NCBI GenBank assembly: GCA_973895155.1
Contig: OZ316893.1
Location: 16,770,645-16,834,644 of the forward strand
DNA length: 64,000 nt
Reading direction: 5' to 3'
Origin: Marsupella aquatica
Taxonomy: Eukaryota > Plantae > Marchantiophyta
The notes beneath the pieces were generated by a model. That model saw only the letters and a list, made by a program, of their open reading frames with translations, was not told the DNA's origin and made no database searches. Position numbers and translations under genes: made by a program. Shown here piece after piece: positions 3,597 to 64,000 of this stretch (positions within the stretch are counted from its first letter, which is position 1; each line of letters starts with the position of its first letter).

Positions 3597-3640
3597 GGAT
3601 ACTGACGTGCATGTTTTATTCTGGTTAACCAGGTCTTTTC

Positions 3641-3777: not shown

Positions 3778-3786
3778 CTCCCCCTT
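3778..3786 (-). promoter_or_regulatory. Polypurine tract of the copia element
   Basis: AAGGGGGAG on the minus strand immediately before the 3' LTR. Confidence 0.85.
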
Positions 3787-15664: not shown

Positions 15665-15913
15665 TCTCCTATCAAGAATGTCTAATTGTTTTTCGAATGG
15701 ATGTTTGGGTAGTGGTTCTCAATGTGTATCAAATTGATGTATGTTATCAAATCTATTTTGTGAATCATCCCCGTTATCATTCCCTAAGGGTACGATGTTT
15801 TTACTGAAGAAATAGCCTGCATATGTTGCCCAAATGTTGACAAATCTGTATAACTGCCAAGTATAACCGCCTTTGACAGTGAACGACCCCTTAAAAAAAT
15901 ATTTAGAGCACTC

Positions 15914-16063: not shown

Positions 16064-16090
16064 TTTTCCTGCCGGTGAATAATTCCCGTC

Positions 16091-29249: not shown

Positions 29250-29700
29250 GAATGCAAGATGAACTGGTTTGTGGTGCTCTGACTCCTCACCAGCTAAGAC
29301 ATTTGGATGGACAGTCCTTGCTTCAGGTTTGTTTACTGGTGTGAGAGCAGTCTGCATTGCTAAAGGAGATGGGTACTGAAAATTGTGCAGCAGAGTTGTT
29401 GAAACTATTCCCCATCTGTTTGCTCAGTGTGTGCATGCTAGGAAATGTTGGGCATTGGGTGCTGGTTGCTTCCAAGGCACCTTTGCTGCCTACTTGGATA
29501 GGCTGCTAGCGATGTTTGATCTGCTGACAGGGGGAGAGAACACAGAAAACTTGCCAAGCTATTTATTTTCTATCAGATTCTGTGGTCCTTAATGGCAAAG
29601 TCAGAACGTGCTTGGTTCAGGCAAATGGCTCCATGAAATTTGATCTTAGATTTATCCTGTCACAGGCGGCTCATCCCATCGGAAAAATAGACATAACATA
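29250..29700 (+). pseudogene. LINE 3' fragment (zf-RVT)
   Basis: GLFTGVRA..KGDG..LCSRVVETIPHLFAQCVHARKCW parallels the zf-RVT at 10580-10710. Confidence 0.7.
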
Positions 29701-29944
29701 AGCAACTCCACGCAAGCATCCTTAGGGGTTACATCCTTAGGAGTTACATACTGGAGTAAGGTGGGCACTAGCGTAATTCCGCAAATGCCTACAGGGTGCA
29801 ATTTCTTGATTTAATGAAGTACTGTCCATGGTCAGGACTAGCCTAAAGCTATCTCTTTCAAATGGTCAACCCCAAGAGCGGACAATAGACTGCAGGGCCC
29901 GCTCATTCATTCATCGTCGACGAAACCATGGCAGAGAAACGTTG

Positions 29945-37451: not shown

Positions 37452-38850
37452 GATGTCACCCTGTCCAAACCGTCATAGATGATAGATTATGTCCTCGATT
37501 TCACAAGGTGCAATGCAATATAAGTAATCCCCCGACTCATTCTGTGAATTTGACTACTTCTATTGACTACGTGGCCTTGAGCTGGGTTTCTGCTGTCGTG
37601 TCAAAGCCTGAAACACAAGCAACATTCAAGTGAGCAAGAATTCGCGGAGTTTGAAGAAAGAAATGGCATAGCGTCTATGCAAGGCAAATCATTCTGGCGA
37701 GTTGCCCAACCGGTGCATTATGAGAAGTCAAGTCTGACAGTTGTCATCTAAAGGCAAGGGAATCAATACCAGAGAAAGAGCCCAACGATGAGATAGAATG
37801 ACTATCCAGAGTATAAAAACTGTTTGAAGTCAACCACCCTATACAGAGTTGACAAAGCACGACTACAAGAAAGTTGAACTGGGTAAACCTCAAAAATTAA
37901 TTCCAGAGACTTAAGAGAGAAACGCAAACTCGTCTATACTACGAGCACAAAATGGAGTTTTCTTCCACAGCATTGAAGACGGAAAGTGAAAGCTGATAGA
38001 GAGAGAGTGAACATTACAAATTTAAGGATCACGTCGACTGCCAAGATTTGCATGCTGGACGAGGTTGAAGTAAAGCGCTTTCAGGTTGCTGCTGGGTTCA
38101 TCAATCACTTTCTGCAACATCGGACCTTGTGCTCTTTCGCTAGTTGCCGCAATAAGTCGATATAATATGTTAGAATGTGGGGACCGAGGCAATTTAGCAG
38201 GGTTGAGTTATAGCTAAGGCGACTACTAATGCGCCGCCTCCTAATGCTTTCGGAAACCCGCTGTCAATCGGGAATGTACATTCTTGATCACGGAATTATG
38301 TTCTCGACTCTGTTCGGACAGTGTAGAATTTTGAAATAACAATTGTTGTCAGGTCCTGTGGCATGTGAAGGGGAAGAAATCGTCCTGAGCAAACGTTTCT
38401 CCAAGAAGTGCCGCTACAATTTGGGAGAAACGCAGAGACAATCTAGGAGAAACGCCAGAGACGCAGTAGGCTAAAGAATATGAGTAACAGAATGTAGATC
38501 GAAATCTTCACTAGTGTATTGTGAAACAAAAGATCGAAATCAACCAGGTACGTCGCTATGGAGCTTTCTCACCTTGTATACTACGGTGACGGTAGTCGTG
38601 AGGAAGGGACTGATGCAGGAAAGGATACACTTATTCCAAACGACCTTCTTCTTATCCTTTCGTCCACCCATGGGCCCACAATGTCAGAAAGGGTTTGCTT
38701 TGGGTTTGCTTTCTGTTTTGGTTTGTCCTGGATAGAAAGATTCACCAAGTGGGAAACGGTGGAGTGATTTAAACCAGCTCTAGCCATATAGCATGCTCAT
38801 CCTGGAACATGCTTTACTTTTTGTCTTGTAGTGATATTAAGTGGACAAAA

Positions 38851-43518: not shown

Positions 43519-46500
43519 TGTGATGCCTAGCCAGGAATCACTAGGCCAATAAGATGGTAAACCCGGGTGGTATATACTAAATCACATTAGTATAAGGAGG
43601 AAAAACAGGAATTAAAATATAAACAATTAAGGGTAACCATGGAACCCGAGTTGAGGCCGGAAGTAAGGGTGCAGCGGCAACCAACGAGGCACAATTAGGG
43701 TTAAGGTATGCTAAGTACAGGCGGCTATGGGTAATCAACGGACAGTCAGGCAACGGCAGCTAGGAGGGGGGAAAGGATTGTTCACCAAGGATGGCAACTC
43801 ATTTGCAAACATTGATCAAGCAAGGGATTGTAACAACTGTCAACTGCTTAGACAAATATTGTGGGTGGAAGCAAATACAAGATGGGAATGAGCAATGTCA
43901 ACCAAGCCGCACATTTTTGGGGATGCCTGTTCGAACGGGCAACTAAGTACATTGGAACATACGAGGATGAGGAGTTGGAGAGAGCAGCCCAAGAACAACA
44001 GCAGATTGCTTGGCTGTGAAAACTCCATAAGTATGCCTTCCTCGGAGGAGAGCTCATCAAGGCTGAATTTTTGTGGACGCCTACTACCAACCAGCACGAC
44101 AACCTCTTATTTTGTAAGAGCATAATCGTTGGCATCCAGGAGGCCATCAACCATTGCAATGATGAACATTGGGACTTGAAGGGTTGTATGGAGGCGTGGA
44201 CAAAAGAAACAGTGTTGGGAAAATTGTCAAGAGCGGCCAAAATAAAGAGAAAGATGACCAACAACAAAGAAGCCACACCAGCCAAGAGAACAAGGTTGGC
44301 AACGTCTAGAAAGCTGGCCAAGCAGGGGAACTAGAGATAGGAGGAGGCCAAGGAACCAGAGGTTGACCCAATCAACGCCATCCCTACAAGGGATGATACA
44401 TGGAAGGGTTGGGCGACGGTCATACCGCAGGCAGTGCAATTATATTTTGCACGAGAAGAGGATGCATGTTTTACAGCCATGCAGTCTTGAAAGTACCAAG
44501 GCTTCATGGCCGGATTTGGCTTGGAGACCTTTGTTAGATTACCGTGGCTCAAGCCGGAGGTGTTGGATCATGGGATCACAAGGAAAATGTAACCAGGGTA
44601 TATGGGAGGGAATTCTATCTCATTCCCAAGGTGATTGCCAAAGTATTTGGCTTGCCGATAGGCAATAAGACCAAGGTAGACACCCGGAAGAACTTGTTGG
44701 ATAAGGAGTTTAGGTCATTTCCTAGGCCATCAATGAAGAATGGCTTCTACTAGAACACATGCACCAACCCGCACATTGGAGAAATGATTGATTTCTTGCG
44801 AATGACAATGCATTGCAATTTGGCAAGGCTGGAGATTGGCAAGGCACAAGTCTACCTGGCAGAGAGGCCAGACCCAAGCCAGGACTACAACGAGTACCTC
44901 CTCACCCAATTGAAGAAGATCTTGAAGGAGGAACAACAAGTGATAGGCCAGAGTCGCGGAACTCGACTACCTTAACACTTAGCTCCGGCATCGCTGACTC
45001 CGACGCTGAGCTCGCTTATGGTCCAGGCCCGGATAGGCCATCCGGGGTGGACTTAGCATAGGGAGACTTGTGGGCAATGAGACGTGGCACTAGCAAGGCA
45101 AGGAGCCAAGCTAGGGGCACACACTAAGGACTCGGACTAGCCGATGGCTGGTTGGGTCAAGGGGAAATGGGCCGGGCTCAAGGATGGCCATCCGGACCTC
45201 CAGATGGACTTTGAGTTCTGAGGACTTGGGAGTGAGCTCCTCTTGGGCCCAAGGCCAATGGAGTTGACACCATTGGCAACGGACGCTTGGGGTGCAAGTT
45301 GTGGCCCGATCCGAGTTGGGTCAGTCGGGGGCCCCAAGCGGCGATCAGACCTGAGGGCCTAGGCATGAGCGCACTGGGTCGGCCCGGTCACAACAGGCTA
45401 AGGCACTCTGCTTGCGGATGCCTATCAAGAAAGTTATGGGAGTTGCTAGTTGGTGGCGCGCCCATTATGCGCGATAGGATCCGGGTTGGGGGCCAAATGA
45501 TTAGGGACCAAAGTTGGTCCGGGGGTGGGAGGTCTCCAGAAGCATATATGAGGGGAGTGGTGTCTCCCTAGGGGCCAAGGGCGAGCCGAAGTCATGAGCC
45601 ACGGTGGTCGCGACACTATGGGAAACCGCCAAACAAAAATGGCGATATCTTCCCAACGAAAGTCCGTTGGAGGACTTCTTAGGTGCGTTGGAAATCTCTT
45701 GAGAAGGGCTATGCCCTCCTGAGCTCAACTGGGTCTGGGGGTGCCCTAGGTTCTTGTGGTTGGCGGGTGTTAGCTCGCCCGCTTGCCAAATCCTGCCGAA
45801 TAGCAACCAAGCCACGTTCGGTCTCCCAAGGGAGCTTGCATTGGGGAGGCAAGGCCAAGTAGGTGTGGAGGTTGAGTTCCAAGGGTGCTCGGCTCCTAGA
45901 CCACCAGTGGGGCAAACCAGGAGCGGTTGCTAGAGTCGGGGCCATTCTGGTCCCAACGTGTCAGGGCGGTCAGGGCGGTCAGTTGGTGATGGATAGATAC
46001 AAGGGGGAACCCAGGCCGCACCCAAGGAAGGAGCTGTTTTGGATGAACAGTGGGCGTGGGTTCTGGTTCCGGCTTATGGCATTGGGAGGACCTATCATTG
46101 ACCTATTTACCAACGTCTGTTGAGCTTGAGTTAGGATGCTAGACTTGTTGAGTTCTATATCTTGAAGGGTTACTTACCGAGGTGCTTGGTTGCTTGTGCA
46201 GATAGGGAGGACCGTTGAGTAGCAGTCGTGTTAGAGAGCAAGTGTGGCTTTGTATGGGAGGGGCTGCTGGCGGTGCAAGGGGCACTAGGTTGCTTGCTCG
46301 AGGTATTCCGTGGAGGCGTTCGGGCACCAAGGGCACTTAGGCGTGAGTGCTGGGATTGGTGAGGGCGCTGGGTGGTAAGGTCCACCACTGCCAGGGGAGT
46401 GTGTCCCGACTTGATTATCACATGCCACTATTGTGCCAATACGCCCGGAGTCAGACCTTTGCACTAGTACTTTCCCTACAGGCAAGGGCACCAAAAGAGG

Positions 46501-48182
46501 AGTTGGAGCAGAGGCCGGCAGCAAGGAAGCCCAAATCGCCTGACAACCCCACAATAGAGCAGATCTTTAGGCCGAGGCCGGAATCCACGCCAATGGAGCA
46601 ACCAGCCATGCAAGACCTTCTGCAAATTAGCAGAAGGAGAAGCCGGCAGCTGTAGCGTAGGTACCGGTATAGGGCATTGTTCAAGAGGCAAGCATAGGAA
46701 GGCCCACAAGAGTAGATCCCTTTGTCGCGGCCGCGCAGGGTAGGAGGCAAGAAGACAAGCCTGAAGTGTGGATGTACGTGGGAGCCTCAAGTCTGGAACC
46801 TGAGGGACAAGGGCCCAAGGTTCCGAGTCACAATGGGGAGAGGCAAAGGCGGGCGTGGGAGCAGGAGCAAAGGCCAACACCCATGCGCAGCTTTCAGCAG
46901 GAGGCCTCGTTCACAGCTAGTTCTCAAGATGACCCGGAGGAACCGGTACTCCAAGCCGGCAGGGAGGGCATGGAGGACTACAATGATGAGGACTTTGGCT
47001 ACGGGTTGGATTGTCCTATACCAGGGGTGAGGACTTGTGGCCGGTTCATCCCCACATTGCCGAGAGTGGTTTGTGAGGACCCAAGACAACAGAGAAGCCC
47101 GAAGTCTCCCCCACCAGACGTCCCTCCTCCAAATTACGATGGGATGAAACAGGCCGCATAGGAGTTGCAAGAGCGACTCAAAGATCTGGTGGAGGCAACC
47201 CTAGCCAAGGAGAAGGATTTACTAGGGGGAGGATGACCATAAGACATTTGGCAGCTTGCCAAAGAACAAGCCGCCCCCTACCCACGTTTGACGAGGTTTG
47301 AAAGGTGGTGTGGGAACAAAGGCCGCGTTGGGAGATGTCGGTCTCTCCTAACCACTCCACATATGCACGTTGCAAAGCCCTGGAGTACGGGAAGATGTGC
47401 TGATTACTTGCCCTTGGCATCTTTGGGGCAGAGATGGAGACGGGGCCCTTTATCCAAAGGGAGATGTTGGATAAAATCTGGTACGTTGGAAGAAGCAGTG
47501 GCCTTGGAGAGGATGAAGAAGGAAGAGGTCATTCGGTGGCTTAGAGAGAAGGAAGCCAAGTTTGGAGATCTAAAGGCAACCAAGTAGGCTCAAGATGAGC
47601 TATGGGTTAGGAAGCATGAGCTTAGCATTGTGCAGGGGCAACTGGATACATCCAAGGCTGATAACAAGTTATTCAAGAGTAAACTTGCCCAGACCCAAGG
47701 GCAATTGGCCGAGGTGCTCAAGGAGAAGGAGAAGTGGAAGCGAGAGCTAAAAGATGTAGAGTCAACTCACATAATGATTTGCAACACGGCCATGGTGGAG
47801 GCACAGAGGAAGGAGAGGGCACTGAAGGGGGAGCTCAAAGATCTCTGCAAAGCCTTTCAACAAAAGAATGCTGAATTGGATAGGACCTACAGGGGTGTTG
47901 ATCAGCTGAAGGAGGATCTCACAACCCTGTCGGCCAACTTTCAAGCTGACCTGCATAGGAAGGACAACATGCTCGATCAAACCTATGAGAAGATGAACAA
48001 GATGCAGTTTGATGTCATCCACGAGCTCAATGCGGAGCTGAGAGCAACCCAGGAGGAGAGGGCAGCCTTACGGAAGACGTTGGACAAAAATGAGAAGGAG
48101 TTGGAGGATGCTCACGGGGATTTGGACAAGACCCAAGAGGAGTTGGAGGACACCATGCGGAAGATGGAGAACTTGCAGCGGC
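43519..48182. mobile_element. Second, older copy of the protein-coding LTR-like unit, truncated on the right
   Basis: Starts TGTGATGCCTAG like 5745. Colinear homology with 5745-8935 (LFCK.S..VGI.EAI, MIDFLR.TMHCNL, RATQEERA) with many stops. Confidence 0.88.
44952..46389 (+). mobile_element. 1,438-bp solo LTR with AG..CT termini
   Basis: AGTCGCGGA...TCCACCACT with 5-bp TSD GCCAG (44947-44951, 46390-46394). The host frame VIGQ|GSVSR is restored on removal. The 3' end matches the LTR next to the PBS at 26674. Confidence 0.88.
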
Positions 48183-51100
48183 TACCTGGGAACTCCTCAA
48201 ATCATTGTTTGTCAAGGAGTTTTGACCCATTGGAACCTCGGAGTTGGCAGTGCTGAAGTTAGGACGACTTCCCTTCAAGGAAAACAAATCCTTTAGGAAG
48301 TTCTTGCAATGCTTCCAAAAGTTGGTAAGACGTACAAAAACCAATGCATCGGAAGGTATGCAACTTCAATGGTTGGTAAATTCTTTACCGCAGAAGATGA
48401 GTTTTGCAATTAGGAAGGAGAACTTTGAGACCTTGGCCGACGCAATTAGGGATATCCAATTATATATTAATGCAGATATTACAAGCCAAAAGAAACAATT
48501 TAAATCTGAAAGCTCATCATCTAAGGAAGGATCGACCAAGAAAAAAAATTAAAAATCCTAAGAAGTCGAGAAGTGACAACTCAAGCTCGGATAGTGAAAG
48601 TAGCACTTAGAGTGAATCATCTTCTAGCTCTGAGGAAGAAAAATCTAGGAGAAAGAAAGTCAGGAGGGGGAAGTTGAAGGTCAAAATAGAGGCTAACACT
48701 CCAACTCTAGATAACCTCGTAGCTCTTACCGACCAGTTGCGGGCTATCATAGCAGAAGCTAAGCCAAAGAAGAAGGTAGTCGTTGAGGACAGCTCTGTAT
48801 GATGTGATTTATGTTACAATACCAGACACCATAAAGATGAATGTCCTAAACTAAACTCTAGTCATGTCCGGCAAGTTATCGAGACCAGGCAATGTCAAGG
48901 AGAAGTAGAGTACTTCCTAGGGGATGAAGCTAATAGCATTTTTGGCATCAATGAGACATGAGGACAAGATCTGGCCAACCGCCCTGCATCCCTCTAGTCA
49001 GGGTTAAGAAATAACCCGGGCAAGATGTATCCACAATCATCCAAAATCCATTTGTGGCTCTTGGGCCAAACGTACAGAGATTTGCGGCATGCTATAATTG
49101 TGGTCAACCTAGCCATTTTGCTAGAGAGTGCCCAAATGGAAGGAAACAAGGCGATGGGCAGCCAGCTCAGTTATGTATGCGGGTATGTATGGGATGCCAA
49201 CAGGAGGGTCACATGCTAGGACAATGTCCTACTTGGTTGGCAAGATTGGCCACAAATCACAAAATCTTGCCGGTCAAGGTCCCACCACCAGGCACTGCAC
49301 CAGGTGGAGTTCGAATCAATCACATTGAACTAGGATGGCAAACAGATGCCGAGGCCAAGTTTGGACCATCTGATGACAAAGCCGAGGCCTTATTGACGTT
49401 CTCAGAAGAGGAACTGGACCACGACTGCTACCGTGTTTCTACTCAATCAACCAGAAGGAAAGAAAGGTGGGATGGTCTGGCCAAGAACAAAGGGAAGGGC
49501 AAGGAGGAAAGGGTCGACGTACTCTTCATCAACATCAACGGAGGGAGAAGGGCTGGCAACCTAGGTAAGCCCTGAGCTCACTAGTGAGCCCAATCCTTCA
49601 CAAGATAGTGATTTCAATCGAGATCACCCCAAGTTGTTCTACCCTTCCATTACGGCCAGTGTTAAGGAAAAACTTCGGGAATTGGAAACATTGGAGAATA
49701 CCAAAGCAATAGCCAAGGATGTCAAAAGAGCCAAAGCGCTATTTGCTTTGGAGAACCCTACTTCTGTGCAACCCAGCGTTCAAAAACAAGCCAAAGCCAA
49801 GAGAGAGAAACTGGCAGAAGAGAAACCGGTAGTTCCCTATGACTTGGCTAAGGATGTACTAGAATCTAGAGTCTCGGCAACAATAGGTCAACTTTTGAAG
49901 AATAGCTTGTACTTCCAAAAACAGTTAAGGAAGGCAATACTTGGCAAGCCATGATTACCCAAGGTAGCACCCAGATCCGACATGCTGATGATAGAAGAGG
50001 ATCAAGGAGCCCCACCGCTACCATTAATGATTCAAGAAGAATTATTACTATGTGTACCCATTGATGGAGGATCAAGGGTATGTATTATGATTGATTCAAC
50101 AGCAATAGGGTGGGGTTTAACATCGGAGATAACTGGAAGAGTGTTGAACATGGCTAATGGCTATCAGGTTATTCCCATGGGAGTCCTCACTGACATTAAA
50201 ACTGAGATAGGAGGAGTCTTGTTTAGTATCAACTATGTTGTAATGAAATTGGTGAAGCCTACATCGTTCAGATTACTGATTGGCAAGCTGTGGTTCTACC
50301 TAACCAAAGTGATAGAGGATTGGGGGAAGAAAGAATTCACTTTTGAGACCCTCACTATCACGGTATCCTGGGACACCATGGATGACGGGGGGAAGAGTAT
50401 CCGAGAAGTAGACGGGTACAACAGTGGGCTAGAGTTTGCTGATTAGGTATGTTGGCTAGAATGCCTCACAGCCCTGACCAAAGAAAGTGTCTTTGGACCA
50501 GATGTACCCCCCAACGGACTTTGGCAAGAGCCAACATTTGGAGAGTAGTATGGAAGAGGAATGTGATGCAGAAGCAGAGGACTGCTTCACCATAGAGTCC
50601 ACTTTTGTAGCTTCAATTCCAGAGGAATCACCAAGGGATATTTGGTTAGATAATTTGACTAAGAGGGGAGCAGCACCTTAGGTATTGGATTTTAAATGGG
50701 CATTGTGGTAGGGCCGACAGGATCCACAATGCCGGCTATCATCAGCAACCAATTAACTGCCAAGATTTCGGCTTACGGGGCAATCACCAAGGCAAAATAG
50801 ATAGAGGCACTATTGGAAGCCGGACAAGTCCAATGGCCAAAACCTCAAGAAGCAAGAAAAGATGAGGTCAACCCTATCAACCCAGAGCCAGGTCAAAAGG
50901 AGAAGCCGACACCTAAGCTACAGAATCTGAGGCCAAACATTACGGAAGAGGTAAAGTCCTTGGACGACAAAAGAATCAAGTCAGCAGACTTGACTAGTAC
51001 AACCAAGATTCCAGTCTATGGAGGGATGAGACTTGAGAGGCTGGAAGCCAAACTAGACCCAAATTTGAAAAAATAGATTAACATGATCCAAGCACGACAA

Positions 51101-52407
51101 TACTGCAAGCTTGACCTAAGAGAAGGCAGGGAATTGAACTTGGGAAGGGATTTAGCACCTGAGCTAGAGAAGGAGATCAATGAGTTACTGATTGAATTTC
51201 AGGATGTGTTTGCATGGAGCCACCAAGACCTACAAGGAGTAGACCCAAAATTGGGGGAACACCAAATTGATCTGATGTTAGGCGCCAAATCGTTTAGACA
51301 GCCAATTTGTAGGATGAACCCTAAGTACTCCTTGATGGTCAAAGCGGAAATTGACAAACTAGTTGAAGCAAGATTCATCACCCCAGTCCTACATTTGGAC
51401 TGGGTATCCCCAATTGTGATAGTTCCCAAGAAATCTGGACCAGATGGTAAACCCAAGATACGGGTTTGTCAGGATTACAGGAAGTTAAATGAAGCCACGT
51501 TGAAGGATCATTTCACATTACCCTTTATTGATATGGTCCTAGACATGGTAGCCAGTCATGAGTTATACTCATTCATGGATGGATACTCTAGTTATAACCA
51601 AATCAGGATTAGGCAGGAGGACCAAATCAAGACGGCGTTCATCATAGAATGGGGGATTTACGTCTTCAATCAAATGTCGTTTGGACTCTGTAATGCACCA
51701 GCTACGTTCCACAGGTTGATGGTAAACATTTTTCATGACTACTTGAAAAAGTTCATGGAGATCTTCATTGATGATTTTGCAGTGTTTGGGAAAGCATCGA
51801 AACATGCTAAATACCTCAAGGAGACCTTCATGAGATTTAGGGAAGTGGGTCTCAAGTTACACCCTAATAAATGTTTCCTTGGAGTAACGGAAGGTGTGCT
51901 ACTTGGTCACAAGGTATCAAGGAAAGGTATTGAGATTGACAAAGGTAAGCTAGCAATATGGCTGGATATCATGCAACCTAAGAACATAAAGGATGTTCGA
52001 TCCTTCTTGGGGTGCATTGGCTATTATCGCAAATTCATCAAGAATTTTGCCAAACTAGCTTTACCATTGACAAATATGCTCACGGCAGGAGCAGACTTCA
52101 AGCCCACACCAAAAAAGGTGACAGCAATAGTTGAATTAAAGCAGATGCTAGTTGAGGCCCCAATCATGATAGCACCAGACTGGAACAAGGATTTTCATGT
52201 TTATGTAGATGTCTCAGGTTTTTGTATCGGTTCAGTATTGAGTCAGCTGGATGAGAACGGAAGGGACCATACCATATACTATGCAAGCCGAAAGCTTGCC
52301 GATGCCAAAGGAAATTACTCAACCACCGAAAGGGAGGCATTGGGAGTCATTTACTCCTGTAAGAAGTTTAGGCATTATCTACTGGGTTACAAGGTGATCT
52401 TTCTGTT
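48183..52407 (+). pseudogene. Non-chromovirus Ty3/gypsy (Athila/Tat/Phygy-like) gag-PR-RT-RNase H, degenerate, no integrase
   Basis: Knuckles CYNCGQPSHFAREC and CMGCQQEGHMLGQC, VPIDGGS protease, DVFAWS, WVSPIVIVPKK, DGYSSYNQI, FGLCNAPATF, FIDD, YVDVSG, YSTTEREAL. Confidence 0.9.
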
Positions 52408-53005
52408 GCGCCCCTAACCCGGGCCTTAAATCCAGTTTAGTTCCATGGGGTGACCTCGGCCCCCAATAGGGGTGAGGGTTTGGGCAAGGAGGTGTGTAGT
52501 GGCCTCGATTAGCCCTAAGTCGGGCTAAGTCAATATACTTACTGGTATAATACTTACGCAACTCGTACTGGTCATAGGTATATTTGTTTTCCACCGCTGG
52601 AATATTCCCACAGTTAGTGACTCAAACTAACTCCCAGCTTGGGGCTTGCAAGCCATCGACGCGACAGAACCTTGTAGTATGCAATGGGTGGCAATCCCTA
52701 CCATTAGTCCGCACCCAGTACGTCCCTTGAAATGGCGCCTTTGCCCAGACAAAACATATACAACACCAGCTACACGCGATAGAATCAGAGGGAAAAGACT
52801 ACATTTACTCAGCGAAGAATCAGTTTACATAGTTGACTCGACTTCTAAGGGGGTCAACAGGCCCAATGGCAGTCGATGCCTAGTCTCTACGAGGCCCCGC
52901 CCGCGCTTTCCTAGCAAGCTCGACTCTGGCTCTCACTCTTTAGTGCACTCTGACCCTGCTCAGGCCGGGACTCCACGTGCCTCGCCTTTTCTTGCGCTGA
53001 GATAA

Positions 53006-53995
53006 CTAAGCCTTCTCCCCCTCCCACAACGGAAGGGGAAGCCTAAATACTACGGTTGCCACCTGCTGAGCTACCTGTAGGAATTGGTTATTGAGGTCAG
53101 TCAGGCTGGTAACCCGAGCCAAGGATTCCGAGCGCAACTGAAGCACGGTGTCGTCCAGCTTCTTGAGATCCGCTTGCGCCTCGCTCAACTCTTGGGTTAG
53201 TCCATCCCGCTGTTCGATGGTGCGGACTAACTCCTCACGGCGGGTAGTGGCCTCCTCCTTGAGGTGTTCTACCAGCATTTGGAGGCGCCCGATCTCGTTC
53301 CCCTTCGCCATGAGTTCTTCCTCCAAGTGGCTTACGATCCGTGGTTGGTGCTCTAACATGAAGAAGGCTGGTTGAAAGTACGTCGAGACTTGTTGTCCGA
53401 TGTACGTTGCCAGCTCCCCTAACAGAGTCTGACTAAACTTCTGGACCAGGTCGTAGGCCATGGTCCCTGGGGCTACTTGGTAGTCCTCCATCCTCTCGGG
53501 TACCGGCGGTTCCTCAAGCGGGGCGGCAAGCTCCTCCGTAGTCTACAATGCGGAGGGGAAGGTTTCTTCAGGTGGTGGAGGGATTGGAGGTGGTTGAACC
53601 GGGGGTAGCGGAGGCTCGACGGGAGGGGGCGGCGGAATTTCAACCCGGGGAGGTGACGGAGTATTAATCAGGGCCTCTGGCTCAGGGTTTTCCCGAGGTG
53701 CGGTAGTCCGCTCGCTCGGGGTAGCCTCCTCCATAGCGGGGGTGATATTAGTCGGGGCTGAGGTGGCCATATTCTTTCCCCTGGCCTCCTGCCGTGCCTT
53801 GTACCAGGTGAGGATGATGGCAATATGACTTCCCAGGTAATTCTTCCCCCCGATAGCCATACCTCCCTGAGCCCGCTTAAGCTCCCCCGAGAACCTCCGA
53901 TAAAAGAATTGGGCCCAGTTTTGCCGTTTGTACTGTTCCACCTGTACGATCGTGCAGAGGGAGATCTTGGATCGTGGCTCAATCATGAGGTACAC
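53006..53995 (-). pseudogene. Retrotransposon accessory ORF remnant (PMD/Athila-ORF1-like C-terminal part, Pro-rich linker, coiled coil)
   Basis: NWAQFFYRRFSGEL..YLGSHIAIIL parallels DYNGYLLNQLKKIL..RLGYHMPLL of the 5860-9506 protein. Followed by poly-Pro and a coiled coil. Confidence 0.5.
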
Positions 53996-54424
53996 AACTT
54001 CATCAGTTATCAGTGACTTTCATCAGTCACTGATATCAGTCTGTGCCCAAAACTCGGCGACGCCGCCGACATGGACTTAATTCATACCCACAGTCAAACC
54101 CTATGTCGGCGTCCACTCCGACATTGTTTTGGTTCGGACAATTAGTAATGTCGGCTGCCTCTCTGACCATCTTGGTGCCCTTTCTAACCATCTTGGCGCC
54201 CTCTCTGAGATATCCTTGGAGTGTTGTTCCATCTCGGCTGAGCTCGCCGAGATGAAAACATACCCAGCAACGTGTACAACATAGCATATCAAATAGGAGC
54301 CACATTAAGAACGTTTGGATGACACACTTTTTATTAAGCTTTGTACCGAACTTTACAACGATGTTGTCTATCTCAATTTTCTGAACTAAATTCCACTAGG
54401 CTGCGTCTCCATCTTCCATCCTCT

Positions 54425-55606
54425 CTACAGGGTAATTGTCTGGCAGACAAGGTCCACAACAATCTTTTGCCGCATGATGTCTATAAGTGCAGGGTCAAAG
54501 TTCAGTACGCCGCCTCCAGAAATACGCTCCATGTAGATAATGATATATACACCACAATTGTAATCATCCCCTTGACCTGGAATGTTATCTCGGTAAATGC
54601 GTGGCCATTCTAATGGACATAACAAGGTACGACCCCGCAAGATGGAGAGGTCCGAAAGAAACTGAGCTACTTTGAACACTTCTGTGCCATCCTGTGCTTC
54701 GGGCACAAGCGGATCAAGTAAATGCAGTTGCCGCAAGGCAGTATCAACCACAACTAGTACCCAGTGTTTTGGCCGGTAGACGGGGATTAAAACGTACTCG
54801 TGCTCCCACATTTGAATGCCCCGCCAATATGCCAACGCTGCGTTGAAGTTATATTCCGGAGTTGTCATCACTTGGTAAAAATGTGTTGGCAATAACATGG
54901 CCTTGGGTTTATGAAGGGTTTGTGCTCTTCGTTCCAGTAAAGCAATGTAAGCATTGATGACATCGCAAGTGATCCATTTTTTTGGCCTCAAGCATTTTAA
55001 ATGTGCCCTCGTCAAGTGCACGTCCTCGATTGTCACTATGACCTCTTTTTGGTCCGCCTTGGGGTCCAATGCCTTCTTCACTATCGCCAAAAATTTGGAT
55101 GGTTGCTGTTGTGCGGGCACTCCTTTGTTTGCAAGCCCCACCTCTTTCACTCCTGCCCGGGGAGTCAGCCCCTCATTCACTGGTTGCTCAGGTCTCTCCT
55201 GAGCTGCAATGAAGGTAAATTCATTCAAACATTACTCTTTGGAACTGGAGCTTGATAATCTTATACTTACATGGTGAGTTTGGAGATTGTCACTTCCTAC
55301 CGAGCTACTCTCATCCGATTGAGCTTCTTTTGCCCTATCATCGACAAATTTGAGAGTTTTCCTTTTTCTCTCTTTTACACAGCGAGGCACTATTTCTTCA
55401 TGATAGGTATCAGCAGCGTAGCACGGAAGGGTTAACTTCACCGGCGAGAAATATGCCAAAGCTTCCTCCAACGCGAGCTTGACAAGCCGTCTGTCCTGGC
55501 TGTCCCATTCCGCTGTAGCTGACTCGGTAGTCCTGTCGGGAACTGCTACTAAGTTATACTTAAATCCAATCAAATAATGTATTGCGCCCAAAATAGACGT
55601 AAACAA
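54425..55606 (-). CDS. Ulp1/SENP-family (peptidase C48) SUMO protease, TE-associated; N-terminal extension separated by one in-frame stop
   Basis: CLRPKKWITCDVINAY, LPTHFY, IPVYRPKHWVLVVVD, LLDPL, PGQGDDYNCGVY. The His-Asp-Cys triad and oxyanion Gln are present. Confidence 0.88.
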
Positions 55607-55648
55607 GAAGGCATCTGTCGGGGAAGGTAGTCGACATGGATCGACGGA

Positions 55649-56445
55649 TCTCGGAGAGGCCAGCCGAGATCACTCTTCCTGAGACGGATCTCGGAGAGGC
55701 CGGCCGAGATTGACTATTCCTGAGACAAATCTTGGAGACGCCAACCGAGATGACTTCTTGAGACGGATCTCGGAGAGGCTAGCCGAGATGACTGTTCCTG
55801 AGACGGATCTCAAAGAGGCCAGCCGAGATTGACTCATCCTGAGACGGATCTCGGAGAGGCCAGCCGAGATGACTATTCGGTACATGGATCTCAGAGAGGC
55901 CAGCCGAGATTGACTCTTCCTGAGATGGATCTTGGATAGGCCAGCCAAAATTGACTCTTCCTAAGACAGATCTCGGAGAGGCCAGCCGAGATGACTATTC
56001 CTGAGACGGATCTCAGAGAGGCCAGTCGAGATTGACTCTTCCTGAGACAGATCTTGGATAGGCCAGCCAAGATCACTCTTCCTGAGACGGATCTCGGAGA
56101 GGCCAGCCGAGATGACTATTCCTGAGACGGATCTCAGAGAGGCCAGCCGAGATTGACTCTTCCTGAGATGGATCTTGGATAGGCCAGCCAAGATCACTCT
56201 TCCTGAGACGGATCTTGGAGAGGCCAGCCGAGATGACTATTCCTGAGACGGATCTCAGAGAGGCCAACCGAGATTAACTCTTCCTGAGACGGATCTCAGA
56301 GAGGCCAGCCGAGATGACTATTCCTGAGACGGATCTCAGAAAGGCCAGCCGAGATTGACTCTTCCTGAGACGGATCTTGGATAGGCCAGCCAAGATCACT
56401 CTTCCTGAGACGGATCTTGGAGAGGCCCGCCAAGATGACTCTTCT
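55649..56445. repeat. Tandem array of ~20 units of 40/41 bp, each holding a 21-bp quasi-palindrome
   Basis: TCTCGGAGAGGCCAGCCGAGA plus (T)TGACT(A/C)TTCCTGAGACGGA, with three alternating variants. Confidence 0.95.
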
Positions 56446-56648
56446 TGAGTTGCATGTAGAGGAATGAATCTTGGCGAGGTCCGCCAACATGCATCTCAAG
56501 TTAGGACTTGCCCTCGCTTGTAGAGGAGGCTAGACACTATGAATGTCAGCGAGGTCAGCCGACATGCATACATATCAGCGAGGCCGCTGACTTGTATCCC
56601 TCTATTGTCAACCATTGCGATGAGCAAGCAAATATGAAATGAACAACG

Positions 56649-59600
56649 TCAAACGCCAGAAAACTTACATGTTGTTAGAAGTACTACCGGCTTTTTCTTC
56701 TTGCGCTTTTCTGGATTGGCTTTTGAACGGACCACCTCTTCCTCCTCCGGGGAGATCACTCCAACCAGTTGTGCCAGTTGGTCTTGCGCACAAGTTCCGA
56801 AGTGAGGATAGGATTCAGTCCCAAACACCATCCGCCCACAATTTTCACCCGCCTTGAATATTGCCCCAAACTGTGCGTTGAAAGTGAGGATAGTTGCCCC
56901 AGGGTGTGTTGTATATTCAATGATACATTGGAGCGTTGCTGGCGACAATGTGCCCGCAAAAGGATCGTTAACCTGATTCTTCTTGGATGTATAGTTCGTT
57001 AGCCCATTCCTACTCTTCATATCGAGCTCTGCACTAATTGGTGCCACATCGTCCTTTGGGCATATCTCCACAGCAGATTGAAACCCCCACAGGTCTAGCT
57101 TGAGATATTCGCTCTGGATTGGCCAAACATATTCAGAGGTCAGACTTCCTCAGTTTAGGATAGTAAGTCATTGGAATAAAAAATAAATGAAGAAGTAGGT
57201 AATTGATGGGACTTACTCGCTTCCCAGTCCTACCATTGTAGGTGGGTGTGTCGTTCCAGATAAAGAAGCTTTCTTTCAACCCCCAGTTGGTATTCTCGTA
57301 AACTAATGCATCATAAATGCAAGTTGAGTGCCGAAGCGAACCACTGTGCACGATGGCAAACAGTCCTTCGGAATCAAGGACATCTCGAGCAAACTCCTGA
57401 ACCCGGTTCAAGTCGTCCTCCCGGAACGAATTCCACAACGGGGTGGACTTAACCTCGACCATACGCGTGTCTGTTCCCATATGTATCAGAATTAAATCTG
57501 CACCAGTCTTCACTCGCTTCCCCCCTTTTCTCCAGGCATTTTGACGCAAACCTTCCCGCAATAGCTTTCTGCACCATGAGATCAATTTACTAACTACAGG
57601 GGGTTTGGTACCTTCTTTAGCCGCATCAAAAAAAGTTGTAAATAGATTTGGAGACCACCTAAAATACATATGTCTGCTCTGGGAAGACATGGTATTGGCA
57701 TAAGGACGCCTTACTCCTTCCAGCTCTGTATTATCCTCTTCTCCAAGGGCCTCTTCATCCTCCTCATTTTCCAATGTGGGGTCAGGTTGGATGGTTGTGG
57801 GCGGAACCTCTCCAGTGCCGGGCAGGGGAGGCGACTCAGTGGGGGAAGGAAGAGGAGGAAATTCCTCGTCACGTGCTTTGCTTGGGCTCCCTTTGGGAGC
57901 TCTGGGTCGCCTAGTTTGCTTTCTTTTTAAGGCCTTTTCCTTTTGCCGTGACAGTAATGGTGGCCGGTAAGGCACAGGAGAGATATCAGACAAGCGCCCT
58001 TCGTCTCCGGATTGTCCTTTGTCCTCTTCCTCTCGCTCCTCTTCCTCTCGCTCACCCACATCATCCTCACCTTGCTGCTCATCAGCCAATTCATCTTGTA
58101 CTTCAGGAGCCTCATGCGGAGGCAAGTCAAATTCTTGCAGTGGAGCCTCGTCTGGACCCAACTCAACTATTGGTTGTTTATCCTTGTGCCCTGGACCCTG
58201 CGAAACCCCTGGACCGTCCTCAACTGCTGCCTTTGTAGCCGGCTCTACACCCTTGCTCTTGATAGAACCAGGTTCCGTTTGGATCTCTGCATGACCTGCA
58301 TAGGATGCAAATTGATGAGCTTCATGATGGCAACTGCATCTCGGCGAGCCTCACCAAGATTGGGTTCATTATATGCAAGCAACTTATTACTCAACTAATA
58401 CTTCATCTCGGCGAGCCTCGCCGACATCTGGACTGGACCAGACACTTAATCTCGGAGAGCCACGCCGATATCTGGACTGGACCAGACACTTAATCTCGGA
58501 GAGCCTTGCCGACATCTAGACTGGACCGGACACTTAATCTCGGCGAGCCTCGCCAACCCAGCCAAGGTTTTTTCCAATGCAAGCCACCACCTGATTCGAA
58601 AGGAATTGAGTAATACCTGATGGGGTCTTTGTTGGAGTGCTTATAGAATCTGACTGACTGGCCTCGGCGGATTGTTCCTTGTCGACCTTCTTCTCGCCTC
58701 CTTCCTTTCGGGCCTTTTTCCCATCATAGGCTGGGTCCATTGGGATTATGGCCTCCAACGCTATTGCCTGGGGCATAGAGTCCGTCAATTGTCGCAGCTT
58801 GGATATATCGTAGTAATTTGTAGGCTCCTGTTGGTCCTTCAGCTTCATTGCACACTCCTTCTCAGTGTCATCGATAAAAGTATTCCAGTCACGGTATTCC
58901 ATATACCGTGGGCAGTTTTGACGTTCCCAATCGCAGACTACTCTGCCATTAGGAATTTGGCCATCACATGGATACATGCTAAGGCTCCCTTTCGGCTCCA
59001 TCCAAGATGTGAGTGCCCATGGCAGCTCTTTCAATACGGATGCATTCATGTTCTCCTGATTGATTAGAAATCTTGTCACGCACCTCGTTGTTTGCTTTTT
59101 CCACAATTCTTTTAACAGGACCGTGGCCTTTCCGTCAATCCAAATTTCCCCGCCTAGTTTTAGTGATTTCTCTTGCACATAAGCTCGATAAAGCCTTTTG
59201 TATAGCTCTGCAAATTCCTCCTCTGTCCCGGAAAACTCACGGTACATCTGTCTTTGGTAGGCCTTTGCAGCAAAATCGGTCAAAATCACACAACCAACGT
59301 GGTCAATGTAACACCACATTGACCAGACTGCTAACCAGGATCTAATTGCAGCATCACCATTGCTACGTGGATGGTGATACATACTCTTCTCCTCCTCCGT
59401 TCCAAAATGAGCTTTCAATAGCTTTACTCTGCACTCTGCAGTTACCCAAGCCCCAGCAAACAAGCGGACCCTGTCCAAGCCAACCTGTACATTCATCACA
59501 CCCTGCTTGGCGTCCTTTGACAACTTGTGATACAGCTGCCGACATACCGGCATGAACTGGTCTCCATTGGCCGGATTCACGCAGGCCGCAAGCTTGGGGA

Positions 59601-60775
59601 ACTTGTTGTCCCAGGCCTTGCATGCAACAATAATCATTGCCTCCGTCTCCTCCTCAGTTCTCTTCACACTCCACGGGTGCCCATGAGCTGCGTCTTGTGC
59701 CATCTCCTTGGAGATAATGATTCGTCCCGCTTCAATGTTTGACCAAGACATGATGTACACAACGGCTTCTTTTGTCATATTCTTTGAGTACCAAGTCTTC
59801 CCATGTCCTCGATTTCGGGCCTTCATGAAAGCCTCCATTGTCTCCTTTGACATGAGCGAACTGTACTCCTCCAATGGAGTGTTCAATAGCTTTGCAACCC
59901 GATCAGCGTCATTAAACCAGGACGTCTTCACGACAGTCGCACTTATCCTGAAAATGACAAACAGTACTCATAGTGGCAATTTCAGAGAGGCTCTCCAAGA
60001 TGGCACACAAGGTTTACACAAACGGGTAATCACATTTTGCAAAAAGATGCGAATGAGAGTACTTACGAGTTGAGAGCGTGCATTGCTTGCTCAACCTTCT
60101 TGAATCCGTCCTTCCCAGCGTTCAAAAGAGAGAATCTGATGCACGGATGGTATTGCAATTGATCCGAATACTCAAAAGCAACTGCGGACCAGGCTATGTA
60201 TCTGTGGTTTCCATCAAAAACCCAAAACATCTTGTCCTTAAGGACTTTGAACTCCTCTGATGCATCGCACTCTTGCTCAAACTGTTCATTGAGCTGAGTC
60301 CATAGAGGGTCCCAAAATGGCTTGAAGTCTGTCATTGTCTGCGTTTCTCCAATTTCATTGAACTCAGTAATGTGGAACTCGCTGAGCTTCACAACATAGC
60401 CGCTCTCTTTGAATCCTTTTTTAATTTTGCAACCGACTCATCCTGAAGATTCCTCACTGCCTCCATTGGCATGAGCCGGCACAAGGGGATCCGGGGCGGA
60501 TCCTTACTAAACTTTGTCTCATACTTGGAGACGATAGACTCCCAGGCTCCCTTCTCAGCAATATCAGCCAATTCCACCGCTCCAATAGGCTCAAATGATA
60601 TCTGCTTTGGCTCAAACTTCCTCCTGGAGTCGACTGACTCCATAAGTGGACCACCCTGTGAGCGCGTCAGTCGAGACGTGACTGGCGAAGGAGACTTGGA
60701 TTGTGGTTTCTTACTCCGCTGAGAAGTTTGGCTGTCGGCAGGTCCAGCTCCAGTCGAGTCTTTCCTCTTCGGCAT
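56649..60775 (-). CDS. Multi-exon gene: ParB/Srx-like N-terminal domain, helical middle, acidic/Pro linker, degenerate beta-class N4C/N6A DNA methyltransferase-like C-terminal domain (possibly pseudogenised)
   Basis: RIPLCRL..VRNLQDESVAKLK(K)GFKESGY..WVFDGNHRYIAW..MHALN, with a frameshift in the A-run at ~60416-60422. GT-AG introns near 60066-59949 and 58586-58296. ADLILI..FARDVLDSEGLFAI..FFIWN..IIEYTTHPGATILTFNAQFGAIFKAGENCGRMVFGTE. Confidence 0.7.
58406..58558. repeat. Intronic 44-bp tandem repeat (3.5 units) built on the 21-bp palindrome
   Basis: Palindrome starts at 58406, 58450, 58494 and 58538 (TCTCGGCGAGCCTCGCCGACA plus TCTGGACTGGACCAGACACTTAA). Confidence 0.9.
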
Positions 60776-61792
60776 TTTGACCTTAGATTACATGAGAAAT
60801 GAAAGAGTTATTACTCGGCAATAGCTCGACCTATAAACCTGACAAGATCTCAGTGAGCCCCGCCGAGAGAGCCAGTTTTCAAGGATACGCGGGGTCCAGC
60901 CTCTCACACATTTGATTCATCTACAAATGGATTTGACATATCAAGAAAAAGGGGGAGCCAAGAGAAAAACCTGAGAGAATCACCAACGTTCACGGCAAAT
61001 CATTGTCGCAAATGCTCACAAAAACATGTTGCCTAAACGCTCACGGAGAAGCTACCACACACTCACTGCCTCAAAACACCAACGCAATCTAGTAGACACG
61101 ATAACAGGGTTGCACAGGAGAGTTTACCGTGAGTGGGACGACTGAAGAAGAGCAGGAACAACGCGGATGTGAGCGCGGAGAAGTGAGAGATTGCACAGAC
61201 CAATATGCAAAGATTGAGGAAGAGCACGGATTAGAGCGCGAACGAGTAAGGGACGCAAAAGAGTGAGGCAGAGTGAGAAGGTCCGGGGATTAGTGATAAA
61301 GATGAGCGCCAAACCTAAGGTGTCACACCGTGGAAGAGTGACGAGGAAGGAACGACATCCACTTCAAGGAATAACGTACCGCACGTACTGCACAACACTA
61401 CAATACGCAATAGATACGGAAGATCCTAACTATACTTCGATACGTACATGTTAACGGCCCAAACAAGAAAGTACACAATGGTAACGCGAGTACTGACCAC
61501 CACTAGTACGAGAGAGTTTAGGGTACATTTAGGGTACAATTAGGGACTTCGGCCTACAACTCAAATGAGTCCGAATGTAGGAGACCCTCGCCGTCATTTC
61601 ATTCCGAGGCCTACTGAGACGTGTCAACATCTCGGTGCGTCAGCTAAAAGAGGAAATGGTTGCCCACATGCATTATCATTTGGGTGGCTTAACTAAAAGA
61701 GGAAATTGGGGTTAAGAGAAGGGGTAAGAGCACAAGTCAACAAGATCAAGGAGGGTTTGTTGGAGGAGACTTAATAAAGGCGGCCAATGATG

Positions 61793-61820
61793 TTTAGGGT
61801 TTAGGGTTTAGGGTTTAGGG
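61793..61820 (+). repeat. Interstitial plant-type telomeric repeat (TTTAGGG)4
   Basis: Four exact TTTAGGG units. Confidence 0.85.
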
Positions 61821-61885
61821 TAAAATATGAGAAGTAGAAAAAATTCCAACACTCTAGCGAACTTCACGGTAGAAAAGTAAGCTTC

Positions 61886-62512
61886 TTGGGTCAAAAAGGT
61901 CGCCAGCCTCTCGGAGACCCTCTCTGAGATGGAGTCGTGGGCGTACTTTGGCCAGATGACACCACTTGTGGACCCTGTTAACAGTTTCAAAGGGTTAGCT
62001 ACAACATACACTGTGTCTCTCAGAGACCCTCTCCGAGATGAAATTAAGGGTATTCCGTTTCAAAGGAAGGACCCAAATTGGTTCTATCCAACATCCGATG
62101 TCAGAGACCCTCTCTGAGACGGAGTGGTGTGGCCCGAACGGCCAGACGGCAAAAATTGTCAATTGCGTCTTGGGTGGAAAGGGAAGCGAGATTGCAACCC
62201 AATCGCTCGGAGACCCTCTCTGAGATGGAGCCGTGTGCCCCAAGTGGCCAGAGAGCAGTTCTCCCAGATCGCATATTGGGTCAGAAAGGTCGCCAAATGA
62301 GACCCAGCCTCTCGGAGACCCTCTCTGAGATGGAGTCATGGGCGTACTTTGGCCAGATGACACCACTTGTGGACCCTGTTAACAGTTTCAAAGGGTTAGC
62401 TACAACATACACTGTGTCTCTCAGAGACCCTCTCCGAGATGAAATTAAGGGTATTCCGTTTCAAAGGAAGGACCCAAATTGGTTCTATCCCACATTCGAT
62501 GTCAGAGACCCT
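61886..62512. repeat. ~225-bp direct duplication (offset ~400 bp) rich in TCTC(G/A)GAGACCCTCTC(T/C)GAGA palindromes
   Basis: 61886-62112 and 62276-62512 are nearly identical. Confidence 0.9.
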
Positions 62513-62721
62513 CGCCAAAATACAAGGATGAACCCAAAAGTGCATGCAAAAACTGACCGTATAGTACTTTTCAATGTTTTTACAATGTAATTATGTATGG
62601 ATCGCGTGTCCGTACAAATCTACTATCTCAGAGAGGCTCGCCGAGTACAAAATACTGTTGCCCAAATGACCCGAGTCCATCTCAGAGACCCCCACCGAGA
62701 ATAATTTAGGGTGGAAACTAA

Positions 62722-63571
62722 ATGTCAGAGACCCTCGTCGAGTAGGATTCTAGGTAAAAGTCTATGAGAATCCATCTCAGAATCTTGGAGACCCCCGCCG
62801 AGAATGACTTAGGATGAAAAGTAAATGACACTCAGCGACCAAGGAAGTCCCTAATCCACCACAGAGAGGCTTGCCAGATAGCGCGACCGCATGTCAGAGA
62901 CCCTCGCCGAGTAGGATTCTAGATAAAAGTCTATGAGAATCCATCTCAGAATCTCGGAGACCCCCGCCGAGAATGACTTGGGATGAAAAGTAAATGACAC
63001 TCAGTGACCAAGGAAGTCCCTAATCCACCACAGAGAGGCTCGCCAGATAGCGCGACCGCATGTCAGAGACCCTCGTCGAGTAGGATTCTAGATAAAAGTC
63101 TATGAGAATCCATCTCAGAATCTCGGAGACCCCCGCCGAGAATGACTTGGGATGAAAAGTAAATGACACTCAGCGACCAAGGAAGTCCCTAATCCACCAC
63201 AGAGAGGCTCGCCAGATAGCGCGACCGCATGTCAGAGACCCTCGCCGAGTAGGATTCTAGATAAAAGTCTATGAGAATCCATCTCAGAATCTCGGAGACC
63301 CCCGCCGAGAATGACTTGGGATGAAAAGTAAATGACACTCAGCGACCAAGGAAGTCCCTAATCCACCACAGAGAGGCTCGCCAGATAGCGCGACCGCATG
63401 TCAGAGACCCTCGCCGAGTAGGATTCTAGATAAAAGTCTATGAGAATCCATCTTAGAATCTCGGAGACCCCCACGAAGAATGACTTGGGATGACCAAGGA
63501 AGTCCCTAATCCACCATAGAGAGGCTCACCAGATAGCGCGACCGCATGTCAGAGACCCTCGCCGAGTAGGA
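62722..63571. repeat. 169-bp tandem array, 5 units (last with a 21-bp deletion) plus a partial unit
   Basis: ATGTCAGAGACCCTCG starts at 62722, 62891, 63060, 63229, 63398 and 63546. Confidence 0.95.
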
Positions 63572-63707
63572 AGTCGGAAGGCTATTTATTCATCCTTCAA
63601 GTCAGGCATTTTTGCAGAGGGGATTATAAGCCACACGACGGAAGAAGAAATGTTTTAGGCAAGGCCGGACGGAATCTTGGAGAATATACTACATCCCCAG
63701 AGTTTGC

Positions 63708-63990
63708 ATGTACCTTCTTGGCGGCTGCTGGCAAATATGTACCTTGTACATGTGCAGAATCTGTACCTTCTTGGCGGCCGCTAGCAAATAGGTACCTTCT
63801 TTGTGGTACAGTTGTTATATGTACGCTCCAGATTCTACGATCGTTATATGGTACGCACGTTGTTCGGAATGGTATTCTTGGCGTAAAGTACGGGTACTTT
63901 AACGTCTGATGTACCGCCCAAGTTCTAAGCCTGAAAGTGCGGTATTATTGGCATAAAGTGGTACCAAGACTTTAACGTCTGATGTATAAA
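63708..63990. repeat. Short degenerate repeats of a different family, probably the edge of another element
   Basis: tgtaccttcttggcggc x2, actttaacgtctgatgta x2, ggtatt.ttggc.taaagt x2. Confidence 0.5.
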
Positions 63991-64000
63991 GCCGAAGGCC

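Follow-up and report, generated by a model that had tools for sequence, protein, structure and literature searches.

The window analysed here, a stretch of 64,000 nucleotides from the liverwort Marsupella aquatica (contig OZ316893.1, positions 16,770,645 to 16,834,644), ends inside a multicopy mobile element (53987..64000) that carries a spliced gene on the minus strand, whose product joins a predicted ParB-like domain to a predicted beta-class amino-methyltransferase fold devoid of the catalytic motif. The reading that we favour, with a probability of about 0.5, is that the gene serves as an accessory to the multicopy plant element carrying it, which is likely a DNA transposon, and that the protein likely binds the 23-bp palindrome of the element as a dimer, acting as a non-catalytic helper that would keep the element unsilenced or mobile.

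The gene starts with an ATG at 60775 and comprises four exons; the introns between them, all GT..AG, measure 119, 321 and 103 nucleotides. Exon 1 (60067..60775) encodes a low-complexity N-terminus followed by the ParB/Srx-fold domain at about residues 78–237, exon 2 (58617..59947) an all-helical, family-specific middle domain of about 400 residues, exon 3 (57217..58295) an acidic, proline-rich linker and the first half of the methyltransferase fold, and exon 4 (56649..57113) the second half of this fold. The intervening introns are placed at 59948..60066, 58296..58616 and 57114..57216, and at the position of the last one two relatives as annotated, P0004 and P0084, run on into an intron. An additional intron near 57714–57569 was rejected, the alignments of the relatives running through that stretch. 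As assembled, the window copy terminates after 128 residues at a one-base frameshift, where an A-run (60417..60422, minus strand) is one base short; once this position is read through with an X, the spliced model yields 1194 residues with a single terminal stop. The extra base is present in contigs of sister copies, at depths of 180/180, 308/403 and 488/1727 in three sequencing runs (X1, X2 and X3), the fourth (X4) leaving the position uncovered.

A fusion of these two domains had been proposed in an earlier note made from the letters alone, and all the motifs that it quoted were located on the minus strand: VRNLQ (60457–60443), DGNHR (60215–60201) and MHALN (60083–60069) in the N-terminal part, DLILIHMGTD (57498–57469), FNAQFG (56882–56865) and VFGTES (56828–56811) in the C-terminal part. 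The gene within the span that it gave is real, but its N-terminal quotation already spans the frameshift. It did not mention the palindrome arrays or the Ulp1 gene, nor that the window copy is frameshifted and decaying, all of which are described below.

A HMMER search with exon 2 against 1.84 billion representative proteins (threshold E ≤ 0.001) retrieved 79 relatives, and among the 20 that were looked up, those assigned to an organism come from Riccia sorocarpa and Calypogeia fissa. A further profile (A4), run on a capped set of 7992 candidates, retrieved at least 73 proteins, all of them from Riccia among the matches listed, where the family forms dozens of dispersed gene models; a word-indexed search with exon 2 among proteins of 777–2215 residues had given no match and is superseded by the full HMMER result. 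The spliced model is colinear from end to end with the R. sorocarpa protein P0082 (1207 residues), with 29% identity over 717 columns (E 5e-77) across the ParB-like part and the middle part and 25% over 402 columns (E 9e-27) across the methyltransferase part, and the splice junctions of the window gene lie within the aligned sequence. Calculated by domain, the identity is 38% for the ParB-like part, 30% for the middle part and 27% for the methyltransferase part. In 10 of the 148 proteins compared, the ParB motif occurs on the same chain as the motif-IV position, so both domains belong to one gene, as had been suspected. A quick tree of the middle domain (34 of 149 proteins, with long branches) groups the window protein apart from the main Riccia clade. 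No relative was found in viral contigs, metagenome contigs gave a single match (a coding-only locus of 1053 bp, L001), and an Rfam search gave no match. In phage and plasmid sequences the tblastn matches were confined to the S-adenosylmethionine (SAM)-binding end, with E values of 0.003 or weaker, and no donor was found; the earlier note had inferred a prokaryote-derived module, but direct descent from a phage ParB-methyltransferase fusion is unsupported.

The folds were taken from predicted structures of natural relatives (P0083 and P0084) and not from the window protein itself. For the C-terminal part, Pfam gave a weak PF01555 match on exon 4 (E 0.087) and a search of PDB sequences with a family profile (A1) retrieved three beta-class methyltransferases at E 0.05–0.2, while P0083 alone gave no match in that search and a second profile (A2) gave nothing meaningful. 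The structural comparison was clearer. The model of P0083, a relative consisting of the methyltransferase part only (mean predicted local distance difference test score, pLDDT, 64), matched CcrM in Foldseek with an E value of 1.7e-10, and its structural Z scores were 14.0 for CcrM, 13.8 for PvuII, 13.3 for MboIIA and 11.8 for the rotifer N4CMT, with MT-A70 proteins placed lower. The relative therefore bears out the predicted beta-class fold, a permuted Rossmann fold with motif IV preceding motif I, and the window sequence is aligned to it via P0082.

A closer inspection of the two motifs revealed how far this fold has departed from an active enzyme. The position of motif IV reads DLPTG, DMPTG, DMPSG, DLPSG, DMPIG or DLPTH in the relatives, VSVGTD in the Calypogeia protein P0004 and IHMGTD in the window (within 57498–57469, in exon 3), and the catalytic D/N/S-P-P-Y/F/W was seen in no relative examined, nor in the window or the sister contigs. 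Motif I is of a near-intact DFAGGWG type in all 11 Riccia matches, and the window family has TFNAQFG instead (exon 4), which departs from the SAM-binding D-x-F-x-G-x-G pattern. Near-identical sister contigs spanning both motifs keep IHMG and FNAQFG and differ from the window only elsewhere. Because the aromatic residue of motif IV is absent from all 21 relatives with a match at this position and the sister contigs share the altered motifs, the loss of the catalytic motif is old and family-wide, and strongest in the subfamily of the window. The earlier suspicion of eroded catalytic motifs was thus right as to the erosion and wrong in regarding it as peculiar to this copy, and no relative with an intact D/SPPY, a kind of paralogue for which it had proposed a search, turned up (0/21).

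For the N-terminal part, Pfam gave no ParB family match on the window protein. The model of P0084 (mean pLDDT 76) matched ParB, Noc and KorB over residues about 20–181, with Z scores of 7.2–8.3 and, for most rows, root mean square deviations (rmsd) of 2.5–3.7 over 92–106 residues. The best match was Caulobacter ParB (7bm8; Z 8.3, rmsd 2.5 over 99 residues); ParB, Noc and KorB proteins occupied the top 11 rows, with sulfiredoxin (5.3) and SerK (5.1) placed lower. Foldseek also placed the ParB family first, with E values of 0.065 in PDB and 0.02 in BFVD, so that the assignment, which agrees with the earlier one made from motifs, is consistent across programs and of moderate strength. DGNHR (60201..60215), a match to the GxxR motif of ParB/Srx Box II type, and the MH(N/A)LN helix are conserved in the relatives, the window included; we take them to be the nucleotide-binding GxxR motif and the C-terminal Asn helix, respectively. 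The middle domain of 400 residues is all helical in a confident model of a relative, and no convincing fold match was obtained for it when searched inside the 906-residue model, so no new fold is claimed. A helicase identity for exon 2, suggested by ESM Atlas clusters at 0.76–0.79, was rejected as being at chance level.

The element contains a palindrome, ATCTCGG-N9-CCGAGAT (23 bp, up to three mismatches), at 41 sites, and the other 53,986 bases of the window contain none. In 200 shuffles the mean was 0.5 sites and the maximum 3, and in a scan of spacers between the two arms only a spacer of 9 works. None of the 41 sites falls within the 4,616 coding bases of the 10,014 that make up the element. 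They form six clusters (near the left end, in a 40-bp array, in intron 2, in intron 1, in the leader and upstream), and the same palindrome recurs in three distinct repeat units of 40, 44 and 169 bp. The 40-bp tandem array of 20 units, together with its flank (55643..56565), holds 22 of the sites; the upstream repeats (61908..63493), consisting of two 210-nucleotide copies and the 169-bp tandem array, hold 12; the 44-bp tandem repeat of intron 2 holds four, and a single one lies in intron 1 at 59979.

The limits and copies of the element were followed in four DNA-type runs (X1–X4) from two studies, with 2296–5182 contigs per run over 52500–64000, paralogues of the window copy being observed as differences between contigs. 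Element contigs align from 53987 onwards, whereas the flanks before this position differ (two contigs each in X1 and X3, agreement 0.62–0.65). To the left lies a high-copy repeat with open reading frames (ORFs) (52500..53986, minus strand), with a depth 10–30 times that of the element, which the element interrupts and which otherwise continues with other letters past 53987. This shared start, the varied flanks and the different continuation of the repeat reveal an insertion with a sharp end at 53987. All bins up to 64000 are covered by many contig identity classes, so that the proposed carriage by a mobile element holds and the element is multicopy. The right end, and a transposase if there is one, fall past position 64000. 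Near-identical contigs have depths of about 170–220 (X1) and 330–410 (X2), as opposed to 25–40 for degenerate ones, which would correspond roughly to ten close copies if the degenerate contigs were single-copy, depth in itself giving no copy number. A CACAA (EnSpm-like) terminus at 53993 was rejected, as the element contigs align from 53987. A short hairpin-like inverted repeat (54012–54037) was seen 25 bases inside the left end, and in diverged sister contigs 3 or 6 extra bases are inserted at 61253, 61448 and 63640, in DNA with no long ORF, and at 55289, in an exon without ATG described below.

Comparison with the sister contigs gave 40 base differences, of which 36 were kept (the other four were seen in one run or in a minority only). 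In 28 of these 36 the window has T in place of C, and 27 of the 28 are placed at CG or CHG (35% expected, p 1e-11). Among the 25 coding differences, 19 change a residue and six are silent. These substitutions mark the window copy as one that is silenced and decaying, within a family that is young.

The 3' end of the gene deserves separate consideration. The stop at 56649, taken as the end in the earlier note, is doubtful because a conserved splice donor lies 20 nucleotides before it. This probable fourth donor, in phase 1 (56663..56668, minus strand), is the best in 56720–55600 by a crude consensus score, and its phase agrees with that of the acceptors at 55615, 55549, 55546, 55543 and 55519. 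It is kept in a diverged sister copy, where a donor in the same phase lies 15 nucleotides closer, in a loose end before 56689 that was read by eye (one contig in each of the four runs, the full hexamer being visible in three). Downstream lie an open exon without ATG (55271..55548, minus strand; phase-1 acceptors at 55549, 55546 and 55543, donor at 55270) and, following it, an exon for a Ulp1-type (C48) protease (54425..55198, minus strand; PF02902, E 3.2e-14) with the His-Asp-Cys triad and the Gln intact. No ATG-started exon with a comparable donor was found between 56668 and the Ulp1 exons. The conservation of the donor points to at least one exon more, for which the Ulp1 exons are possible candidates, and we give about even odds to the splicing of exon 4 onto them. 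Against such a fusion, the nearby acceptors at 56602 and 56587 would yield a short last exon, three chance occurrences of GTAAG are seen within exons, and the C48 domain was found in no scanned relative.

These features allow a mechanism to be outlined, in which the binding to the palindromes, the use of cytidine triphosphate (CTP) and the effect on chromatin are what we infer. The ParB-CTPase-like N-terminal domain, with its GxxR intact, would load in a nucleotide-gated manner at the palindromes and could spread from them as ParB does from parS. The methylase fold, deprived of the catalytic aromatic residue, may have been kept as a module for DNA contact, base reading or dimerisation. Splicing onto the Ulp1 exons would add a SUMO-protease domain, and the frameshifted, decaying window copy would depend on its sister copies. 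A more specific version, which we hold only tentatively and consider unlikely in its entirety, is that intact sister copies encode a ParB clamp-dead methylase-Ulp1 protein of about 1,540 residues that would load under CTP gating at the parS-like palindromes, slide over the element, read bases and strip SUMO from silencing factors. If this were true, a bacterial-type partition clamp would have been turned into an anti-silencing machine of land plants, in convergence with VANC and KIU, and the Starship cargo DUF3723 would gain a ParB-type function.

Several observations weigh against a palindrome-binding helper of this kind. The ParB match is moderate, with no Foldseek E value below 0.02 and Z scores near the level that the tool rates as common, and it comes from a relative that is 38% identical to the window in that domain. 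No helix-turn-helix was demonstrated; two ParB/Noc chains extend the alignment to about residue 390 of the model, with an rmsd of 14. Most palindromes stand in tandem arrays, so the 41 sites amount to about six independent clusters, and they could be transposase sites instead. The methylation-type decay of the window copy (27 of 28 C-to-T changes at CG or CHG) means that any anti-silencing did not protect it. Finally, 60800–64000 holds no transposase ORF and the window no second end, leaving the class of the element unproven.

The closest competitor, which we regard as possible and yet unlikely, is a structural transposition factor whose binding to the palindromes would pair or protect the ends of the element, as with subterminal-repeat binding proteins, and would leave chromatin unaffected. 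Palindromic, repeated sites and a ParB fold would suit a dimeric bridging protein, and clusters are found near the left end (54231) and upstream (61908–63458). The sites, however, also lie deep inside the element, within introns 1 and 2 as well as in the spaces separating genes, a pattern reported for VANC targets, and only one of the 41 is within 1.5 kb of the known end. A working, non-canonical N4-cytosine/N6-adenine (N4C/N6A) writer that marks its own element, an activity that the window subfamily may have lost later, is somewhat less probable still. It is in line with the self-modification proposed in the algal papers cited below, with the retention in Riccia of the SAM-binding motif (DFAGGWG type, 11/11) and of an invariant D and P at motif IV, and with the conservation between Riccia subfamilies, in which the methyltransferase domain (60%) matches the middle domain (61%) and exceeds the linker (33%). 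This has to be set against the absence of the base-stacking aromatic residue of D/N/S-P-P-Y/F/W from 21 of 21 matches, and against the window family, near-identical sister contigs included, being without the D, the P and two glycines of motif I.

A functionless passenger gene, with palindromes of use to nothing but a transposase encoded outside the window, seems improbable to us. The frameshift, the 19 residue-changing against six silent differences from the sister contigs and the many partial gene models in Riccia are what a passenger would leave behind, but domain order, intron positions and the GNHR motif persist across subfamilies that are only 27–38% identical, and the frame is open in the sister contigs. 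The last rival, that the gene is a host methyltransferase domesticated in the manner of DN4MT1, is largely refuted. The beta-class fold is shared with N4C enzymes and the named relatives are liverwort proteins, but this family is scattered over dozens of gene models in Riccia and, here, sits in a multicopy insertion, whereas Marchantia DN4MT1a and DN4MT1b are described in the available preprint text (bioRxiv 10.1101/2021.02.12.428880) as two tandem host genes with TSPPY and active writers of N4-methylcytosine. The likeness is limited to a beta-class fold in a liverwort genome; TSPPY is absent here, so that by this test the families differ and the link to DN4MT1 drawn in the earlier note is unsupported, and that text mentions no ParB for DN4MT1. 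Nor was a DN4MT1 sequence among the search returns, one of the searches having covered only proteins of 663–2113 residues.

Considered against known systems, the locus is a land-plant variant of a known design, and the architecture itself is not new. The main text available for the Ectocarpus element Sola1-1_Ec32 (PMC12477816) describes an accessory gene of a giant DNA transposon that encodes a ParB-like and an N4C/N6A DNA-methyltransferase domain in 1104 residues, and its authors propose that the protein binds and modifies the element's own DNA. The same two domains are joined here in one protein of about 1190 residues, also within a multicopy inserted element; the earlier description of ParB-methyltransferase fusions as a phage and prokaryotic architecture was accordingly overstated. 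The likeness lies in the domain make-up. In contrast to the algal element, the host is a land plant, the catalytic motif is lost, a Ulp1 gene lies downstream and is possibly fused, no transposase is visible in the window and the element runs off its end. The red algal Plavaka cassettes PAG2 and PAG3, as far as the available preprint text goes (bioRxiv 10.1101/2025.02.11.637652), place a ParB gene beside tandem inverted repeats together with a PF01555 gene, Bostrychia PAG3 having inverted-repeat arrays. They resemble the present locus in the ParB-like accessory protein beside such arrays and in the PF01555 domain of the cassette, and differ from it in that ParB is joined to a 2-oxoglutarate oxygenase and the methylase to SET, whereas here ParB and the methylase fold share one chain. 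According to Iyer et al., in the part available, several eukaryotic adenine methylases are linked to phage ParB loci.

A parallel of another kind is offered by VANDAL/VANC and KIU of Arabidopsis. VANC proteins, in the text available from the two reports (PMC5735166, PMC13317346), bind motifs in non-coding tandem repeats, some carry Ulp1, and demethylation is proven; in KIU the Ulp1 domain is fused to a DNA-binding protein. Common to these systems and the present one are a short motif that tandem repeats have multiplied within introns and in intergenic DNA, and a Ulp1 domain in the element. Unlike the palindrome of 23 bp found here, the VANC motifs, as described there, measure 8–9 bp and are not palindromic, and for the present protein demethylation is only conjectural. 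No Pfam or structural sign of kinship with VANC was obtained, and the Pfam scans gave no match to a VANC-type protein or to a Mutator transposase, any transposase of the element lying outside the window. The C-terminal part resembles in its fold (Z 11.8–14.0), and in having motif IV ahead of motif I, the beta-class methyltransferases (CcrM, M.PvuII, M.MboIIA, M.BceJIV, M1.HpyAVI and the rotifer N4CMT), from which it departs by the missing D/N/S-P-P-Y/F/W and, in the window subfamily, by the broken motif I. The N-terminal part shares fold, GxxR motif and palindromic candidate sites with the CTPases ParB, Noc and KorB; the domain here is larger, with insertions, it is followed by the 400-residue helical middle domain, and a helix-turn-helix and CTP binding are only putative here.

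A further likeness concerns DUF3723 (PF12520), described in the literature available as a conserved fungal Starship cargo of unknown function. In ESM Atlas, language-model features of the ParB region of P0082 (residues 155–420) score 0.96 against fungal DUF3723 clusters and 0.95 against a cluster from a sponge, and both families are mobile-element cargo. Unlike DUF3723 proteins, the family gives no match to the PF12520 profile (21 members, E up to 10). These look-alikes hint at a ParB-like domain in DUF3723 proteins, a lead only. No land-plant report of the design was found in the literature, although supplements and subscription papers may list plant copies, and the main text of the Riccia genome paper contains neither 'ParB' nor 'methyltransferase'. 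That plants keep a methylase fold with no catalytic motif speaks, as far as this branch is concerned, against the 'self-methylation' idea of the literature. The locus supplies material for a test, namely a young family with open-frame sister copies and a defined 23-bp candidate site in a host group, the land plants, with genetic models, the window copy itself being broken.

Upstream of the gene, six of the ten plus-strand TTTAGGG of the window are gathered in runs at 61517..61820, which we take to be possible telo-box promoter elements. Elsewhere in the window, decayed DUF7869 transposase-like ORFs with an upstream ORF occupy 16079–19500 on the plus strand (PF25273, E 1.5e-28), and their motifs presumably resemble those of Sola1 transposases. 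These ORFs (17207–19129) were rejected as the element's own, as they have neither DNA nor palindromes in common with it. An ORF for reverse transcriptase and RNase H (51077–52414) precedes the high-copy repeat at 52500..53986. A Copia-type retrotransposon with gag, integrase and reverse transcriptase, split among several frames, lies at 11293–15718 (minus strand), and two related LINE-like regions, at 5038–11059 and 43800–48300 (plus strand), have a long coiled-coil ORF between the reverse transcriptase and zf-RVT pieces (860 residues at 6924–9503); Gypsy-type relics accompany these Copia and LINE ones. Together with the relatives and the ATPase gene named next, these relics fit a plant host. 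The only clear host gene seen, which is rich in introns and encodes a heavy-metal P-type ATPase bearing an HMA domain, extends over about 29000–37500 on the minus strand.

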